Position numbers and translations under genes: made by a program | Shown here: positions 34,618 through 42,058 of the stretch, piece by piece | Position numbering within the stretch: the first letter of the stretch is position 1 | Layout: the number at the start of each line of letters is the position of its first letter | The notes under the pieces: model-generated | Database searches by the model: none | Told to the model about the DNA's origin: nothing | The model's input: only the letters and a program-made list of their open reading frames with translations | Assembly (NCBI GenBank): GCA_963675495.1 | Contig: OY776215.1 | Coordinates: 768,001-832,000 of the forward strand | Length of the DNA stretch: 64,000 nt | Direction: 5' to 3' | DNA from: an uncultured Methanolobus sp. | GTDB lineage: Archaea; Halobacteriota; Methanosarcinia; Methanosarcinales; Methanosarcinaceae

Positions 34618-35856
34618 ATGGAACTGGAATTCAAAGGTGCATGCAGGGAAGTTGGAAGATCGGCAGTCCTCATTGATGATAAACTTATGATGGATTACGG
34701 AGTGTCTCCGGGAGAGCATATAAAGTACCCAGTGAATGGGTCACGGCCTGAGGCTGTGCTTGTATCCCATGCACACATAGACCATTCCGGAGCAGTTCCA
34801 AACCTAATGGACCTTGAACCTGATATCTACATGACACCAACTACTTTTGACCTCACACATATGCTGGCAAATGACACATTGAGAATTGCAGAAAGGAAAG
34901 GAGAAATGCCAGCATATGATTCTATTGACCTCTCAAAGTTTGTCCATAAAACAAAACAAGTGGATACGGGAGTCGAATTCCAAGTGCATGGTTACGATGT
35001 TGAGTTCCTGAATGCAGGACATATTCCCGGTGCATCAGCGATCCATGTCCGGGATAAAGAGGGTAAAAGTCTGTTCTACACAGGAGACATCAATACCGAT
35101 GATACACGACTGGTTCTCGGTGCAATTGACTTCCCTGATTCAGATATACTCATTACCGAAAGCACATATTTTGGGGACGACCACCCTCCCCGAAAAGAAA
35201 TCGAAAAGGAATTCATCGATTCGGTGCAGGATACTCTAAACATTGGTGGAAGCGTCATTATTCCTGCCTTTGCCATAGGGAGAACTCAGGAAATACTAAT
35301 GCTTCTGGATTCCTACGGCATCAGAGCCTATGTTGACGGAATGGGAGTACAGGCATACAAGATCATGTCAAGACATCCCGAGTACATACGCAATCCCACG
35401 CATCTTAAAAAAGCATTTGATAATGCTACCATGATAACTGGTCGCAAAAGAAATAAGATAAAACTTGAATCTTCCGTAGTTGTAACAACAGCCGGAATGC
35501 TCAATGGCGGACCTGTGCTCTATTACATCAATAAACTATACAATGATCCAAAATCAAAGATAATACTTACAGGATACCAGGTGGAAGGCACTAACGGCAG
35601 AATGGCATTGGACACAGGCAACATAGACAATGATGGAATTATCCAGCACCTCAAACCGAAAATAGAACAATATGATTTTTCCGCCCACTCAGGAGACAGG
35701 GAACTTAAAGAAATGGTGAAGGATTTCTGTGACAGAGGGACTGAACATGTCTTCACTATGCATGGAGATAACTGTGAAGGATTTGCAGACTGGGTAAAAG
35801 AAGAAATGGGCGTTGAGGCATTCGCACCGGAAATCGGTGAGCGCTTTACACTATAA
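34618..35856 (+). CDS. MBL-fold beta-CASP ribonuclease
   Basis: SHAHIDH, AGHIPG, YTGD, PAFAIGR and FSAH motifs. Confidence 0.92.
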   Translation: MELEFKGACREVGRSAVLIDDKLMMDYGVSPGEHIKYPVNGSRPEAVLVSHAHIDHSGAVPNLMDLEPDIYMTPTTFDLTHMLANDTLRIAERKGEMPAYDSIDLSKFVHKTKQVDTGVEFQVHGYDVEFLNAGHIPGASAIHVRDKEGKSLFYTGDINTDDTRLVLGAIDFPDSDILITESTYFGDDHPPRKEIEKEFIDSVQDTLNIGGSVIIPAFAIGRTQEILMLLDSYGIRAYVDGMGVQAYKIMSRHPEYIRNPTHLKKAFDNATMITGRKRNKIKLESSVVVTTAGMLNGGPVLYYINKLYNDPKSKIILTGYQVEGTNGRMALDTGNIDNDGIIQHLKPKIEQYDFSAHSGDRELKEMVKDFCDRGTEHVFTMHGDNCEGFADWVKEEMGVEAFAPEIGERFTL

Positions 35857-36513: not shown

Positions 36514-36760
36514 TCAGCCAACCAACTCCAAAATAAATAACATGCTTCTATATACCGCCATATAGCAGTTCATTTTAATTTCTGTTTTCCCTAATGTGCA
36601 TAACATATTAATTAAGTTATCGAAATTATTCGGACACTGTAAAAGCATATCAACTTAGTTCTTAAAACTCCATTTTAAATTTGATACGATTTTCTTAGAA
36701 GAATCTCTAAAATAAGTTCCTGCTTCATGCGAACCTAGTTAACATAAGGAAACAGATTAT

Positions 36761-36805
36761 CTTATTATTATTATAATTATTATAATTATTATATTATAAG
36801 TATAA
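36761..36805. repeat. AT-only tandem repeat (TTATAATTA-like units)
   Basis: TTATTATTATTATAATTATTATAATTATTATATTATAAG. Confidence 0.7.
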
Positions 36806-36828
36806 CCGTTATAACCAGGGAGAATTAT

Positions 36829-37293
36829 ATGAATACTTTACAGATTTCAGATATGCATTTCGGCCCCCGACATTGAGATAGAGACAATTAAATCCTACTG
36901 GAGATTATCAATTCGTTTGATGCTGATATCGTCATCAACACCGGGAACAATGCAAGAGATGGTATGAAAGACGAGTGTGCTGAAGAAGGCTGTTTTTTAA
37001 ATTCCGCCGACCTTATCGATTTTGTACAAAAACATAAATTGAATACGTTTTTTGCGGTCATCCTCACGAACTGAAAATTATACAAGCAAATGATCAATAT
37101 CACGGTCATTTATTTACCAATTTTATGTGTGGCAGTCTATCCTCTAGCAATCATCCAAACGATGATAGCATGTTTTTGTATTATGAAAATGTGGACAGTG
37201 AAGATATACATTTACATCTGATACGAATCTTTTTAAAGATAAGGAAGGTACATTTTAAACAAGAAAAAGTCTTTTAGGGGAGACTTTCAGTAA
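36829..37293 (+). pseudogene. Calcineurin-like metallophosphoesterase pseudogene
   Basis: After a GGGAG RBS: MNTLQISDMHFGPRH*DRDN*ILLEIINSFDADIVINTGN, then CGHPH in another frame; stops, frameshifts and an internal deletion; end approximate. Confidence 0.7.
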
Positions 37294-37368
37294 TAATACT
37301 TTTATAAGTTCCTTTAACACAGTTGACACCCTTTATAATGGGATGAATACCAAACAATTGGATTTACA

Positions 37369-38388
37369 ATGAGTTTGGACCACAGCAATAGTGATAATGG
37401 AAATATAACCACCGCATTATTATTGGCAGCTGGTAAGGGCAGTCGTTTATATCCTCTAACACGCGACACACCTAAGTGCCTTACAATGGTCCATGAGGCT
37501 TCTATACTTGAGCGACTTGTCATCAATTTGAAAAAACAAGGCTTCAAACGTCTTGTCATTGTCACGGGATACCAGGAGAAATGTATTCGTGATTTTTTAG
37601 AAACGCGTTCATGCGGTATGACAATTGATTATATTTCCAGTCCCCTTTACGCGACCACCAATAACATCTATTCACTCTGGATGGCGCGCGATATTATTAA
37701 TGAGCCTTTCTTACTTGTTGAAAGCGACCTCATTTTTGATGAATCTCTTCTGGATGGTATGTGCTCTCCTGACCGAATTGCCGTTGGATGCATGCAACCA
37801 TGGATGAATGGTTCTACTGTTACAGCCAATAAATCCCATCATGTTAAGAAATTCCAAAGCGGTATTGCTGGGCCGCTTGATGAGATCAGATACAAAACTG
37901 TCAATATTTACAGTTTTTCACTCCCTTCGTGGCATAGTATTAAAGAAAGGCTGGGTCAGTATATTTCAGCCGGTAAAGTAAATGAATATTATGAAACCGT
38001 CTTTGCGGAAATGGTGACTGATGGCAGTCTCTCCCTTGAAACAATCTCATTTGACAGTAAGCGATGGTACGAAATAGACACAGTCTCAGATCTTGAAAAG
38101 GCTGAGAGATTATTTTCAGCAGACAAATATGAAACAATTATTCCTTACAATACCACATCAAAGATTTCTGGACTACCAAGGCCATTTTTTTTGATAAGCA
38201 ACAAACAGGGAGTAAAAGTGGTTACTCGTTCACTTTCCGCCTTAAGGCCATTGACCCAGTCTAACCCTTTGAATTTAAAGTCAATTTATCAAGCTAAGAC
38301 TTTAAAAAATGAAGTGCCACTTCAACATCATTTAAGAGGAATAATACCTGATGCAACACAATTACAAGACCCAAACCGAAAAATATGA
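37369..38388 (+). CDS. LicC-like phosphocholine/aminoalkyl-phosphate cytidylyltransferase
   Basis: LLAAGKGSRLYPLT..TPKCL, TNNIYSLW, LVESDL and WYEIDT..DL motifs; about 90 aa atypical C-terminal tail. Confidence 0.85.
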   Translation: MSLDHSNSDNGNITTALLLAAGKGSRLYPLTRDTPKCLTMVHEASILERLVINLKKQGFKRLVIVTGYQEKCIRDFLETRSCGMTIDYISSPLYATTNNIYSLWMARDIINEPFLLVESDLIFDESLLDGMCSPDRIAVGCMQPWMNGSTVTANKSHHVKKFQSGIAGPLDEIRYKTVNIYSFSLPSWHSIKERLGQYISAGKVNEYYETVFAEMVTDGSLSLETISFDSKRWYEIDTVSDLEKAERLFSADKYETIIPYNTTSKISGLPRPFFLISNKQGVKVVTRSLSALRPLTQSNPLNLKSIYQAKTLKNEVPLQHHLRGIIPDATQLQDPNRKI

Positions 38389-39466
38389 TTTCATTTCCAG
38401 ACAGCATGGTGGTTACTATCACCATGAATTTATTGATCATGCTTATCTTTACAATCTATATTTCCCGCCAGAAGCAGTTTTTACAAGCTTTAAAGATCAA
38501 ATTCACGACATTGTCCTTAACTATCCTATTGCACAGGATGCTCTTGCCGGTCTTATAAGTGATCTGATCCATCAACCTGCTGAAAGAATTGTTGTAGGAA
38601 ACGGTGCTGCTGAACTTATCAAAATCATCTCCGGCCACATCTCTGGCAAGTTGATTGTTCCAGTGCCATCTTTTAATGAATATGCAAATGCAGCACCTGA
38701 GGGACAGGTAGTAGAATTTCCTCTCGAATTTCCATCTTTTCAACTGGATGTAAACAAATTTGCTGCCGAAGCGATCAAAGTTAAAGCAGATGTTGCTGTC
38801 GTGGTAACACCTAATAACCCAACATCGATTCTGGTTCCAAAATCCGACCTAATATCTCTTTCTCAAAAACTTGCAGATCATGACTGTATGCTCATCATCG
38901 ATGAGTCCTTCATGGATTTTGCACATGATCCTGATCAGGCAACTCTGGAACACGAAGTTGAAAGCTATCCAAACATAGCCATCCTTAAAAGCATGAGCAA
39001 AGCCTATGGCATCTGTGGTCTCAGGATTGGTTATATGGTAACTGCAAATTTAGAATTCGCTGAATCTGTAAGAAAAGGCATACATATCTGGAATATTAAT
39101 GGATTCGCCGAAGAGTTTTTGCGGATATTGCCCGATTACAGAAAAGAGTTTGTTGAAAGCTGTAAACATGTACGTGTAGACCGAGATAATCTGTATAAAA
39201 GCCTGCGTGCTATCCCGGGAATGACTGTTTACAAACCCGATGCAAACTTTATTTTCTGCCGCCTGCCAGATCACGCACAAAGTGGTCCAGAAGTCACACG
39301 GAAATTGTTCATTGAGCATAACATGTATATAAAACACTGCCAAGACAAGACTCTACCTGATTCCAGCCGTTATGTTCGTATCGCCAGTCGTACTGAAACA
39401 GAAAATTACAAATTAGTTGAAGCGTTGATAGATGTTATTGACTCAGATAAAATGGAAGTATTCTGA
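38351..39466 (+). CDS. PLP enzyme class I/II (CobD/HisC-like, probable phospho-amino acid decarboxylase)
   Basis: HGGY, GNGAAELI, PNNPT, IDESF and KSMSKAYGICGLRIGY (PLP lysine) motifs. Confidence 0.85.
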   Translation: MQHNYKTQTEKYDFISRQHGGYYHHEFIDHAYLYNLYFPPEAVFTSFKDQIHDIVLNYPIAQDALAGLISDLIHQPAERIVVGNGAAELIKIISGHISGKLIVPVPSFNEYANAAPEGQVVEFPLEFPSFQLDVNKFAAEAIKVKADVAVVVTPNNPTSILVPKSDLISLSQKLADHDCMLIIDESFMDFAHDPDQATLEHEVESYPNIAILKSMSKAYGICGLRIGYMVTANLEFAESVRKGIHIWNINGFAEEFLRILPDYRKEFVESCKHVRVDRDNLYKSLRAIPGMTVYKPDANFIFCRLPDHAQSGPEVTRKLFIEHNMYIKHCQDKTLPDSSRYVRIASRTETENYKLVEALIDVIDSDKMEVF

Positions 39467-40098
39467 TGAATGATTCTGACCAGCAGCGATCACATCAGTT
39501 AGGAATGCTTGATTTTGTCCGGGATCTTCCAAACATCTGTTCTCTTGCAGGGTTGTTATGTGCAGTCCTTAGTATATACTATGCCATATTAGGTAATTTG
39601 TCATTTGCGATAATTGGGATGATATGGGCTGTTGTTTTTGATTGGGGAGACGGATTAATTGCTCGCCGGATGAAAGGGCGAACTGATGAATATCGAGCTT
39701 TCGGAGGGCAGCTTGATTCATTGATAGATATTGTAAGTTTTGGAATTTGCCCCGCTGTATTTCTCTTAAGCTATGGAGAATTCAGCCCATGGTTCCTACC
39801 CGGAGCATTTGTGATTGTTGCCGTTGGTGTAATAAGGTTGAGTTATTTCAATGTTTTTGGTTTAGTCGATGATTCGACTTATATGGGATTAGCACTTGAC
39901 AACAATGTCCTTATTCTTGCCTTTATCTTTCTGTTTAACAGTTATTTCAGCCAGCCGATCTTTACAATCACTATATATGCACTGTTAATTGTCATGGCTG
40001 CCTTTAATGTAGCACCAATCCGAACCCCCAAGTTTTCCAGCAGGTGGTTTTCTGTTCTCCTGATTTACACCGTGGGATTGACAGCTATTTATATATGA
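39466..40098 (+). CDS. CDP-alcohol phosphatidyltransferase
   Basis: Signature DWGDGLIARR...GGQLDSLID, PN..S, multiple TM helices; coupled to the previous gene by TGATG. Confidence 0.9.
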   Translation: MNDSDQQRSHQLGMLDFVRDLPNICSLAGLLCAVLSIYYAILGNLSFAIIGMIWAVVFDWGDGLIARRMKGRTDEYRAFGGQLDSLIDIVSFGICPAVFLLSYGEFSPWFLPGAFVIVAVGVIRLSYFNVFGLVDDSTYMGLALDNNVLILAFIFLFNSYFSQPIFTITIYALLIVMAAFNVAPIRTPKFSSRWFSVLLIYTVGLTAIYI

Positions 40099-40161
40099 AT
40101 ATTCTGGAACAAATATCAATGAATTTGAATCAATTACAATTGAAAAAAGGAGGTACAACAT

Positions 40162-41433
40162 ATGTGCAGCTACCAGCCACTAAGGAAATGTATCTCAAAC
40201 AATGACAATGAATTAATAATTTACGGGGCTGATTCTTTCTCTCAGTTCCCCCGCCGTGATGCATCTGTGCATTCAAAATGTGACAGAGCACTTCCAATAG
40301 CACGCCATGATGATCTGGTAGTTCTTCGTGGAACTCTGGATCAAGAGTATAATAAATGGCTGCGTTCTCATGGGCTTGGGTCGGATAATATTGTTGAATA
40401 TAATATTCATTCTCCTGAACTGACTCTTTCAGAACTGATCATTAAGGATCCTGAACCGGTCAATAAAATAATCAGACGGCTTGGGAGAATGCCTGTATAT
40501 GTGCCATGGTTTTCAGGGCGCATGGAGGCTGAAGCTGCAAAGGTCCTTGGAGCGGATCTTTTCGGGGCTACTGAAATTGCAACACTAACATATAATGATA
40601 AATCCGCTTTTAAGACCCTATGTCGACAATTAGACATATCTGTTGTTGAAGGCAGTTTATTTGAAATACATCCTGAAGATGCTAATAATTGCGTAGAGAT
40701 GAAAAACGTTATCAAATGGTATCTGTCAACCTGTGAAACGGTTATAATTCGAGGTGCTGTGGGCGAAGCAGGCATGTCTTTATACAAAACCCGAGGCAAT
40801 GATATTTCAGAGATATATCGTGAAATTGCAATTAGCGGTGAAAAATCGGTTATTATTGAGCCTTTTCTGAATGTTTCGTCTTCTCCAAATGATCAGTGGG
40901 TAATTAGTAGAAATGGAACTATAAATTCTCTTGGTATGCGAAATCAAATATGTGAAAGAGGTATGGTACACATTGGTACTCTTAAAGGAGCAATAATTTC
41001 ACAGGATATTTCAAATTTTATTACAAATACATCTGCAAAAATTATAAACAATATGCTTGAATTTGGATATCGGGGTGTAGTAGGCATCGATTATATTGTA
41101 TCGAATGATGGTATATTCCCTGTTGAAAATAATGCTCGTTTTAACAGTTCCTCTTATGTGGGCATGATAATAGATAACATTGAAGAATTAACAGCTCCTA
41201 TCCCCTGCTGGAAATTTATAAAAATAAAGACCGAAGCATGTTCTTTTCTTGAGCTCACGGACCGTATTGAACCAATACTTTATGATGGAAAAAAATCAAA
41301 TTCGGTGTTTCCTTTCAGCTGCGATACATTGCCGTTGTCCGGCGATTTTGCTGTTGTGCTCTTAGCCGAAAATATGGATGAGATATATAGCATAGAAAAA
41401 TCATTGAAAGAAATGGGTGTTAAAAGGTTTTAA
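40162..41433 (+). CDS. ATP-grasp ligase (PGM1/pre-ATP-grasp type)
   Basis: GGAGG RBS; YNDKSAF, IIEPF, GVVGIDYIV and VENNARFNSSSY motifs. Confidence 0.75.
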   Translation: MCSYQPLRKCISNNDNELIIYGADSFSQFPRRDASVHSKCDRALPIARHDDLVVLRGTLDQEYNKWLRSHGLGSDNIVEYNIHSPELTLSELIIKDPEPVNKIIRRLGRMPVYVPWFSGRMEAEAAKVLGADLFGATEIATLTYNDKSAFKTLCRQLDISVVEGSLFEIHPEDANNCVEMKNVIKWYLSTCETVIIRGAVGEAGMSLYKTRGNDISEIYREIAISGEKSVIIEPFLNVSSSPNDQWVISRNGTINSLGMRNQICERGMVHIGTLKGAIISQDISNFITNTSAKIINNMLEFGYRGVVGIDYIVSNDGIFPVENNARFNSSSYVGMIIDNIEELTAPIPCWKFIKIKTEACSFLELTDRIEPILYDGKKSNSVFPFSCDTLPLSGDFAVVLLAENMDEIYSIEKSLKEMGVKRF

Positions 41434-41515
41434 TCAAATCTATATACCCTAATGAGAAACAGCAATAATAAAAGAAAAAAGTGGCTAAAAATGAATTTTA
41501 TGATTTACTAAGCGA

Positions 41516-42058
41516 TCAACAACTCAATTTTTCATGTTCTTGCTCTTTGCGTATATCATCTATGTGAATAAGCCTGTTAGCATCGATACCAACCAAACAC
41601 ATACCGTTCTTGTCCATTGACCAAACGCAATATCTGTCACCTATATCTTCAGGTATTTTCTCAGATGGCAATTCAGCAGGAGTAATGCTACATGACTGAA
41701 GACCCGGATATTCATCAGGATTCAGTTCCATTATTGTTACTATTTTCTGCAAATATGAAAAGAGGACATTTATATCTTCATGATCCCACTTTCGAATTCT
41801 TTCACACATAATGGGAATCAGAATTTTTGCCACACCAGTATTTGCCAGTATCTTATGTGAAAGACAAATAGAAGCATTATCATGTTTAACATCGTCATTT
41901 GGTCCCCGGAAACAGAATATACCTTCACTGACCATTAATTCAAGGTCCAGAGGGTCTTCCGAGCTATTTATTGCATTTTCTACGATTTCTATGTCAAGAT
42001 CATACTCATCAGCAATTCTTATGATAGCTTTTTCTATAACTATACTATTGTCTATCAG
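41516..42058 (-). CDS. Conserved hypothetical protein
   Basis: Frame stays open 41 codons upstream of ATG 41935 to a CTG overlapping the mobA stop; first canonical start is 41935. Confidence 0.7.
   Translation of the reverse strand: MIDNSIVIEKAIIRIADEYDLDIEIVENAINSSEDPLDLELMVSEGIFCFRGPNDDVKHDNASICLSHKILANTGVAKILIPIMCERIRKWDHEDINVLFSYLQKIVTIMELNPDEYPGLQSCSITPAELPSEKIPEDIGDRYCVWSMDKNGMCLVGIDANRLIHIDDIRKEQEHEKLSC

Follow-up and report, generated by a model that had tools for sequence, protein, structure and literature searches.

A candidate Kennedy-like head-group cassette with an ATP-grasp amide ligase, found in a Methanolobus genome and in bacteria of several phyla

What does an archaeon make with four adjacent genes that seem to encode a LicC-like nucleotidyltransferase, a CobD-like pyridoxal phosphate (PLP) enzyme, a membrane cytidine diphosphate (CDP)-alcohol phosphotransferase and an ATP-grasp ligase? 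The genes belong to an uncultured Methanolobus species and lie within a 64,000-nucleotide stretch of contig OY776215.1 (assembly GCA_963675495.1, positions 768,001 to 832,000), hereafter called the window. Four open reading frames (ORFs) of the plus strand fill positions 37369-41433; the first two overlap by 38 nt, the second and third by 1 nt, and a gap of 63 nt precedes the fourth. The ORF coordinates, the profile scores and the fold of the ligase confirm the prediction originally made for this DNA (the original prediction) that these are co-oriented, closely spaced genes of the families named. Genes and sequences were read from the window, and from them we inferred the substrates and the order of steps. 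We consider it probable that the four genes form a self-contained mobile cassette, with an optional fifth gene encoding a metallophosphoesterase, that runs a Kennedy-like head-group pathway.

Using the ligase alignment, we scanned one genome per species; this gave 173 pattern-matching stretches, of which 104 code for a relative, and the 80 best of these were taken as loci. Canonical order was defined as transferase, PLP enzyme, phosphotransferase and ligase, each of at least 45% identity. Among these best 80, the canonical order was present in 47 of the 57 loci in which the DNA upstream of the ligase gene exceeds 3 kb. The remaining 23 loci were shorter; 14 had more than 750 nt upstream, and the phosphotransferase gene was directly upstream of the ligase gene in 11 of the 14. 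The hosts of the canonical order are Methanosarcinales and bacteria of at least seven phyla: 12 of the 47 loci came from Methanobacteriota, 15 from Thermodesulfobacteriota, nine from Bacteroidota, six from ‘Myxococcota’ and one each from Kiritimatiellota, Chloroflexota, Chlorobiota and Pseudomonadota, with one unlabeled (phylum labels are those of the submitters' record titles, and the ‘Myxococcota’ were mostly titled ‘Deltaproteobacteria bacterium’). Across the loci the transferase was 51-89% identical to its window counterpart, the PLP enzyme 61-91%, the phosphotransferase 55-91% and the ligase 53-84%. The flanks were not conserved: 254 genes lay no more than two genes away from the cassette, and these fell into 218 clusters. 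Hence, the four-gene neighborhood that the original prediction proposed to look for in other genomes does recur there amid unrelated flanks, and the view that the four genes are one conserved functional unit is supported. The full-text literature searched, which covers few subscription journals, held no prior description of the four-gene set.

The ten exceptions among the 57 loci comprised a fused locus (L067), four rearranged loci (L063, L068, L071 and L073), one with a phosphotransferase fragment (L018) and four with the ligase gene alone (L016, L042, L043 and L075). A cassette-type phosphotransferase, 57-75% identical, was encoded on another contig in four of the five ligase-alone genomes (those four loci plus the shorter locus L077), and in three of these four genomes it was accompanied by the PLP gene and a partial transferase gene. 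A stand-alone function of the ligase thus found no support. The lone ligase gene of L075 (7907-18375, from a Desulfobacterium metagenome-assembled genome (MAG)) is flanked by genes for a family-5 solute-binding protein and a hybrid sensor kinase, with a Roadblock/LC7 protein and a small Ras-like GTPase next; the same binding-protein and kinase pair stands ahead of the rearranged cassettes of L071 and L073.

Fusions and gene replacements bear on how the enzymes would work together. In L067 the transferase domain is fused to the PLP domain in a single 634-residue protein. The family is not a rare one: it comprised 410 proteins at E <= 0.001 in a collection clustered at 90% identity, or 173 representatives of 50%-identity clusters at E <= 1e-10. 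Four proteins (P0391, P0393, P0394 and P0396; 473-502 residues) join a transferase-type domain (48-59% identical) to a phosphotransferase-type domain (45-59% identical), which is the architecture of IPCT-DIPPS. L063 and L068 have, in place of the CobD-like gene, one resembling class-V 2-aminoethylphosphonate transaminases (TIGR03301, 300 bits, cut-off 360.8; 6pd1, 1.3e-47), with the phosphotransferase, ligase and a LicC/PntC-like transferase retained. Aminoethylphosphonate is the phosphonate counterpart of phosphoethanolamine. As it lacks a hydroxyl group, it could take part in this variant only as a donor activated by cytidine monophosphate (CMP). The four transferase-phosphotransferase fusions, the L067 fusion and the transaminase-like variant thus support the view that the product of the transferase would feed the phosphotransferase. 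The original prediction, in which the head group is activated and then moved to an alcohol, gains from the same fusions and variant as to that order of events; its archaeol acceptor, its lipid product and its acylation after transfer gain nothing from them. A LicD gene separates the PLP gene from the phosphotransferase gene in L011 and L072, and its presence fits a CDP-aminoalcohol intermediate. Genes for a class-III aminotransferase and a D-2-hydroxyacid (phosphoglycerate-type) dehydrogenase also lie between those for the PLP enzyme and LicD in the deltaproteobacterial L011 (6367-8648) and may be a private precursor supply. The proteobacterial variants (L063:2996-3652, L068:621-5682 and L055:15-395) lie amid mobile and conflict genes (IS1595-type transposase, HipA, Fic/DOC and DUF3800).

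Table 1. Features of the cassette region (positions within the window)
Feature	Positions	Strand	Basis
LicC/PntC-like nucleotidyl (probably cytidylyl) transferase, 339 aa	37369..38388	+	PF00483; LicC 1jyk
CobD-like PLP enzyme, 371 aa, proposed phosphoserine (or CDP-serine) decarboxylase	38351..39466	+	TIGR01140; 6oux
PssA-like CDP-alcohol phosphotransferase, 210 aa, integral membrane protein	39466..40098	+	PF01066; MjPSS 7b1k
PGM1/BesA/LdmS-fold ATP-grasp amide ligase, 423 aa	40162..41433	+	AlphaFold2 model and Foldseek
Metallophosphoesterase pseudogene (intact form 281 aa), cassette accessory gene	36829..37277	+	tblastn with the intact L009 gene
Inserted island	36655..41515		left junction about 36645-36655; right junction between 41434 and 41515

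The transferase matched PF00483 (NTP_transferase; 2.3e-11, 44.2 bits, cut-off 21.2), and its best matches in the PDB were LicC (1jyk, 1.8e-14) followed by the cytidylyltransferase domain of PntC-AEPT (6pd1, 1.1e-10). The GxGxR signature near the N-terminus (G22, G24 and R26) was intact in all 52 cassette relatives; the C-terminal tail of about 90 residues varies among relatives. Glu118 and Glu209 were each kept in 49 of the 52. In the HMMER alignment Glu118 pairs with Glu104 of PntC, and Glu209 pairs with the Asp of the LicC YWD motif in the LicC alignment only. The acids described as contacting the substrate amine are Glu104 and Glu196 in Tde-PntC, where the amine is primary, and Asp (D105/D192) in LicC (PMC6697681). 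Conservation of Glu118 and Glu209 would fit a small primary-amine substrate. The IPCT-DIPPS model NF041135 gave only a weak match (62.4 bits, cut-off 580).

The PLP enzyme matched PF00155 (Aminotran_1_2, 117.3 bits) and scored 180.6 bits with the CobD model TIGR01140 (cut-off 290.55) versus 139.3 bits with the HisC model TIGR01141 (cut-off 276.55). Its best PDB match was 6oux (2.2e-40), which bears the deposited name "threonine phosphate decarboxylase-like enzyme" and which we take to be the L-serine-phosphate decarboxylase SMUL_1544; among chains named HisC the best gave 7.9e-32. Lys217, the Schiff-base lysine of an SxSK motif, was present in 55 of 55 relatives, as were D184 and S216, and N155 was present in 54 of 55. 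The enzyme is not a plain histidinol phosphate aminotransferase, the outcome that would have told against the original prediction, as it misses the HisC cut-off and the true HisC of the genome is encoded elsewhere. Because the true HisC (L088, 331.8 bits) and CobD (294.9 bits) of this complete 2.87-Mb genome score over their cut-offs, the view that the cassette PLP enzyme is distinct from both housekeeping enzymes is supported. The genome contains, outside the window, two adjacent CobD-like genes of about 500 codons (L086 and L087; one, at 294.9 bits, is over the cut-off and the other, at 214.8 bits, under it), both encoding about 120 residues more than the usual length. An extra Aminotran_1_2 gene upstream of the cassette in L014 and L015 was considered as a cassette member and rejected; it is the host HisC, a chance neighbor, and the copy in L015 is preceded by a histidinol dehydrogenase gene.

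The phosphotransferase matched PF01066 (CDP-OH_P_transf, 52.8 bits) and, below cut-off in each case, the serine-synthase models NF038087 (96.7 bits, cut-off 240), TIGR04217 (72.9, cut-off 200) and TIGR00473 (74.8, cut-off 107); its best PDB match was MjPSS (7b1k, 4.8e-11). The family motif D-x2-D-G-x2-A-R...G-x3-D-x3-D was complete, with D59, D62, G63, A66, R67, G80, D84 and D88 present in 58 of 58 relatives, and Q82 and S85 were equally invariant. The catalytic serine-site residues reported for MjPSS are Ala59 and Ser63 (PMC8633023).

Sequence matches of the ligase were all under cut-off: ATP-grasp_3 scored 17.2 (cut-off 23.2), LdmS 39.3 (475; 3.3e-10) and BesA 26.3 (750; 3.1e-6). An AlphaFold2 model made from a 90-sequence alignment had a predicted local distance difference test (pLDDT) score of 95.1; an earlier model from 18 close sequences (pLDDT 54) was discarded. 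In Foldseek the model matched 8ynd, a Streptomyces ATP-grasp peptide ligase (1.1e-22, template modeling (TM) score 0.75), BesA (8yi6, 9.3e-22), LdmS (7r8q, 1.5e-19) and PGM1 (3wvq, 3.8e-19), with TM scores of 0.73-0.75, and its neighbors in the ESM Atlas carried PreATP-grasp, ATP-grasp_3 and PGM1_C domains. These fold relatives all form amide bonds between a carboxylate and an amine. A beta-aspartyl-peptidase-like gene lay beside the cassette or the metallophosphoesterase gene in five of the 80 loci (the L018 copy gave 308 bits with PRK10226, cut-off 567), a weak hint that the bond formed is a beta-aspartyl amide.

Elsewhere the genome encodes its own archaetidylserine synthase, which passes its model (238.2 bits), is 25% identical to the cassette phosphotransferase and adjoins a homologue of phosphatidylserine decarboxylase; there are also two archaetidylinositol-phosphate-synthase-like genes. 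Ordinary archaetidylethanolamine does not need the cassette. Given its own CobD, HisC, archaetidylserine synthase and decarboxylase, the genome would hold the cassette as a set of extra paralogues that add something new. The original prediction had found no LicD gene in the window, and this absence extends to the whole 2.87-Mb single-contig genome.

In the pathway that we propose, the CobD-like enzyme and the LicC/PntC-like transferase would together convert O-phospho-L-serine to CDP-ethanolamine. Decarboxylation might precede cytidylylation, according to CobD/LicC logic, or follow it, as in the logic of FrbH (see below); either order would give CDP-ethanolamine, and the data do not choose between them. 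Phosphoserine is preferred to phosphothreonine because the presumed phosphonate of the L063/L068 variant is unbranched and because the PLP enzyme is close to 6oux. The PssA-like membrane enzyme would then move phosphoethanolamine from CDP-ethanolamine onto an alcohol with release of CMP. The ATP-grasp enzyme would form one amide, most probably between the carboxylate of an amino acid (aspartate is our best guess) and the free amine of the ethanolamine part; the amine acylated might be that of phosphoethanolamine, of the CDP conjugate or of the finished diester.

Several points weigh against this scheme and must be set beside the rival explanations. No curated equivalog model scored above cut-off for the transferase or the ligase, the guess of aspartate depends on a neighboring gene found in only five of 80 loci, and the ligase gene of two genomes is not linked to the other three, such that close coupling is not obligatory. 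The L063/L068 genomes yielded no phosphoenolpyruvate mutase over the cut-off (one sub-threshold match and one blank, from incomplete assemblies of 1.5 and 2.1 Mb), and the transaminase is the one gene from which a phosphonate version of the pathway might be read. Other points concern the membrane enzyme, which misses the threshold of the archaetidylserine synthase model and the nearest characterized relatives of which all take a CDP-lipid donor. Its residues 30-199 align with residues 38-189 of the 7b1k chain, and thus with most of MjPSS, and MjPSS Ala59 and Ser63 correspond to Gly81 and Ser85, which are small and compatible, although this is no proof of serine binding or of a CDP-lipid donor. 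Such a donor is the core of a rival that we regard as unlikely: the membrane enzyme would be a conventional PssA paralogue that uses CDP-archaeol or CDP-diacylglycerol to attach serine, or a serine-like alcohol made or modified by the other three enzymes, and the transferase product would not be the donor. This rival accounts for archaetidylserine and phosphatidylserine synthases being the best family and structure matches and for the retained serine site with its invariant Ser85 and Gln82. PssA-type enzymes take CDP-lipids of Archaea as well as of Bacteria, a tolerance that would account for transfer across domains. However, it leaves the LicC/PntC-like enzyme without a role, must accommodate the four transferase-phosphotransferase fusions and a phosphonate-like variant that supplies a compound having no hydroxyl, and would duplicate a bona fide archaetidylserine synthase to which the cassette enzyme has little identity. 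The resemblance to MjPSS may instead mean a serine-like acceptor.

The PLP enzyme leaves room for a different rival, as it misses the CobD equivalog threshold and its sequence cannot tell a decarboxylase from a HisC-like transaminase. The enzyme might be a transaminase that, like Cj1437, converts for example dihydroxyacetone phosphate to serinol phosphate, the head group then being CDP-serinol or another amino-alcohol phosphate and the remainder of the pathway unchanged. The HisC model still gives 139.3 bits, a transaminase-type protein occupies the same position in L063 and L068, and the pathway in which Cj1437 is described as forming serinol phosphate also has an ATP-grasp amidoligase (PMC12409886). 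Yet the CobD model beats the HisC model by 41 bits, and the best solved relative is deposited as threonine-phosphate-decarboxylase-like (2.2e-40, versus 7.9e-32 for the best HisC chain), so we give the transaminase only a small chance. Very improbable, in our judgment, is that the cassette is merely an alternative route to ordinary phosphatidylethanolamine or archaetidylethanolamine with the ATP-grasp gene as an unrelated passenger. The first three genes would suffice for a Kennedy-type ethanolamine lipid, and two genomes have a three-gene locus that lacks the ligase gene. However, all 47 canonical loci, as well as L063, L068, L071 and L073, have the ligase gene after the phosphotransferase gene; four of the five ligase-alone genomes have the cassette-type phosphotransferase elsewhere, beside the PLP gene and a partial transferase gene in three of the four; the expected ligase position of L098 is occupied by an IS200-like transposase; and this genome already has the canonical synthase-decarboxylase pair.

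Taking the Kennedy-like pathway as the preferred reading, we considered which alcohol would accept the phosphoethanolamine. Our tentative choice is a small polar alcohol that occurs in both domains and resembles serine, in view of the PssA-like site; the product would be a soluble N-aminoacyl phosphodiester. A membrane lipid alcohol (diacylglycerol in bacteria and archaeol here) is nearly as likely, and some other acceptor is unlikely. Three observations make a small soluble phosphodiester at least as likely as a lipid product. Archaeal and bacterial hosts, which have different core lipids, encode phosphotransferases that share up to 71% identity; the fused forms have the IPCT-DIPPS architecture; and the accessory hydrolases seem to be cytoplasmic, the copies inspected having no signal sequence evident by eye. 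Further points for a solute are the family-5 solute-binding protein and sensor kinase encoded ahead of the genes in L071, L073 and L075, and the marine or saline origin of the named isolates. For a lipid stand every characterized near relative of the membrane enzyme, all of which are lipid makers, and the known CDP-choline, CDP-ethanolamine and CMP-aminoethylphosphonate transferases, which serve mostly lipids or glycans. The accessible part of a polar-lipid survey (PMC6423904) gave no lead on the product.

Was the cassette acquired by transfer? In three same-genus genomes that lack it, a tetratricopeptide repeat (TPR) gene and a homologue of the ORF designated orf139 are about 220 bp apart, whereas about 5 kb separate them in the window, and similarity to this empty site stops on the left at about position 36655. 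The intervening island of about 4.85 kb holds the four genes and the decayed metallophosphoesterase gene; no convincing direct repeats were found flanking its ends. The 139-residue ORF itself (41516-41935, minus strand) had no Pfam or NCBIfam match and was found, with 68-83% identity, beside the TPR gene in four same-genus genomes; because of this conservation we assign it to the host, outside the island. The ligase was present in 21 of 151 genomes of the archaeal family (the window's own included), among them four of 35 in the genus of the window and 11 of 13 in another genus. Trees were quick maximum-likelihood searches with support only from the Shimodaira-Hasegawa-like approximate likelihood ratio test (SH-aLRT). 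In the ligase tree all 18 archaeal rows formed one clade (SH-aLRT 100), which grouped with rows from Desulfosarcina, Desulfobacteraceae and Kiritimatiellales (support 83). The archaeal rows of the phosphotransferase tree lay on one side of a branch (support 90), with rooting on the genome's own paralogue unreliable owing to an outgroup branch of 4.59. In the PLP tree the window fell in an all-archaeal set of 12 archaeal rows plus the window (SH-aLRT 97); the change count of 2 in that tree is owing to an unrelated second PLP paralogue of L006 on a very long branch. The horizontal acquisition foreseen in the original prediction is thus upheld by the empty site in three congeners, the presence in four of 35 genomes of the genus and the single archaeal clade, and transfer from bacteria to Methanosarcinales is favored but not proven. 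The ‘AT-rich block’ of that prediction did not stand: the four genes have 39.0% G+C versus 40.6% for the genome, the 26th percentile of its 4-kb windows, and base composition was therefore rejected as a sign of transfer.

The pseudogene noted beside the cassette in the original prediction is indeed a metallophosphoesterase gene in decay. By tblastn, residues 1-58 contain two in-frame stops and residues 197-281 lie in a different frame with one more in-frame stop; about 125 codons are deleted, and a weak third piece corresponds to residues 183-207. Locus L009, which has both flanks, encodes the intact 281-residue protein at the same place (Pfam Metallophos, 2.1e-17). The metallophosphoesterase gene adjoins the cassette in nine of the 80 loci, the Methanolobus and Desulfosediminicola copies are 70% identical, and no solved relative of the protein was found by sequence. 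Just 5' of the dead start, within the island, is a very AT-rich run of ATTATTATAATT-like units (36755-36800) that is longer than in L009. In a Methanosarcinaceae MAG a gene of the endonuclease/exonuclease/phosphatase family follows the ligase gene (L034:2494-3312), a second phosphoesterase type found with the cassette. Farther upstream in the window, directly 3' of topA, a plus-strand gene (34618-35856) encodes a short, 412-residue beta-CASP/metallo-beta-lactamase nuclease whose match to the aCPSF1 model (256.9 bits, cut-off 580) is confined to the C-terminal part, the first 180 or so model positions being unaligned.

Kennedy-type head-group activation is regarded as mainly eukaryotic and rare in bacteria. 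If the scheme is true, Archaea and many sediment bacteria would have a Kennedy-type route, tied to an amide ligase, that moves across domains as a four-gene unit. We suggest, with rather less confidence than we have in the pathway itself, that the cassette is a cross-domain ‘plug-in’ that passed, probably from sulfate-reducing bacteria, to marine Methanosarcinales including the anaerobic methanotrophic (ANME) group ANME-2 and that makes an undescribed diester of phosphoethanolamine bearing an N-aminoacyl group, perhaps beta-aspartyl. This compound would be a new solute, zwitterionic or anionic, of anaerobes living in sediments, or else a head group for both ether and ester lipids, and some Proteobacteria would have a phosphonate version. 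The product could account for unassigned polar lipids or phosphorus metabolites of marine sediments and methane-seep consortia.

Each part of the cassette has parallels in known systems. LicC and PntC are the best solved relatives of the transferase, with the amine-contacting acids being Glu as in PntC, and the Lic and Pnt systems likewise hand a CMP-activated small amino-phosphate or amino-phosphonate to a transferase; LicD is even present in two variant cassettes. However, the usual partner in the cassette is a PssA-like CDP-alcohol phosphotransferase instead of LicD, and the cassette would make its amino-alcohol phosphate in situ by means of the CobD-like enzyme and has an integral ATP-grasp ligase. 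The IPCT-DIPPS system of di-myo-inositol phosphate synthesis couples a nucleotidyltransferase with a CDP-alcohol phosphotransferase of the membrane that is able to use two soluble substrates, and the second domain takes as its donor the CDP-alcohol that the first produces; the cassette fusions have the same layout. The cassette differs in its score with that model (62 versus 580 bits), in a phosphotransferase that is nearer PssA than DIPPS and in a predicted donor that is an amino alcohol rather than inositol.

The FrbH protein of FR-900098 synthesis is a cytidylyltransferase-decarboxylase fusion described as cytidylylating 2-amino-4-phosphonobutyrate, which is then decarboxylated to give a CMP-linked amine that is later N-tailored (PMC8976061). 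The paired activities are those proposed here and the fusion architecture is that of L067; by our reasoning 2-amino-4-phosphonobutyrate is the phosphonate isostere of phosphoserine. The differences are that FrbH has a phosphonate substrate and serves an antibiotic pathway in which CMP is removed later rather than displaced by an alcohol. In the Campylobacter jejuni HS:2 capsule pathway, according to the reports, Cj1436 decarboxylates serine phosphate and thereby forms ethanolamine phosphate, the ATP-grasp protein Cj1438C amidates a carboxylate with ethanolamine phosphate and the phosphatase Cj1435 follows (PMC12409886, PMC11800379). There too a serine-phosphate decarboxylase supplies the amine for an ATP-grasp amide ligase, followed by a phosphoesterase, which gives a precedent for an amide on the amine of phosphoethanolamine, whether before or after activation. 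Unlike the cassette, the C. jejuni set has no nucleotide activation and no CDP-alcohol phosphotransferase, its carboxylate is that of polysaccharide glucuronate and its ATP-grasp enzyme is TupA-like instead of PGM1/BesA/LdmS-like.

The formal logic of the cassette is that of the cobamide nucleotide loop (CobD, CbiB, CobY/CobU and CobS), in which an amino-alcohol phosphate, an amide, nucleotide activation and membrane phosphodiester formation with release of a nucleoside monophosphate are combined. Three of the four cassette catalysts belong to other families, however, no corrin genes are adjacent and the true CobD is encoded elsewhere. Each enzyme is of a known superfamily, and what seems new, judged by the literature searched, is the four-gene combination with its ATP-grasp member and its spread across domains.

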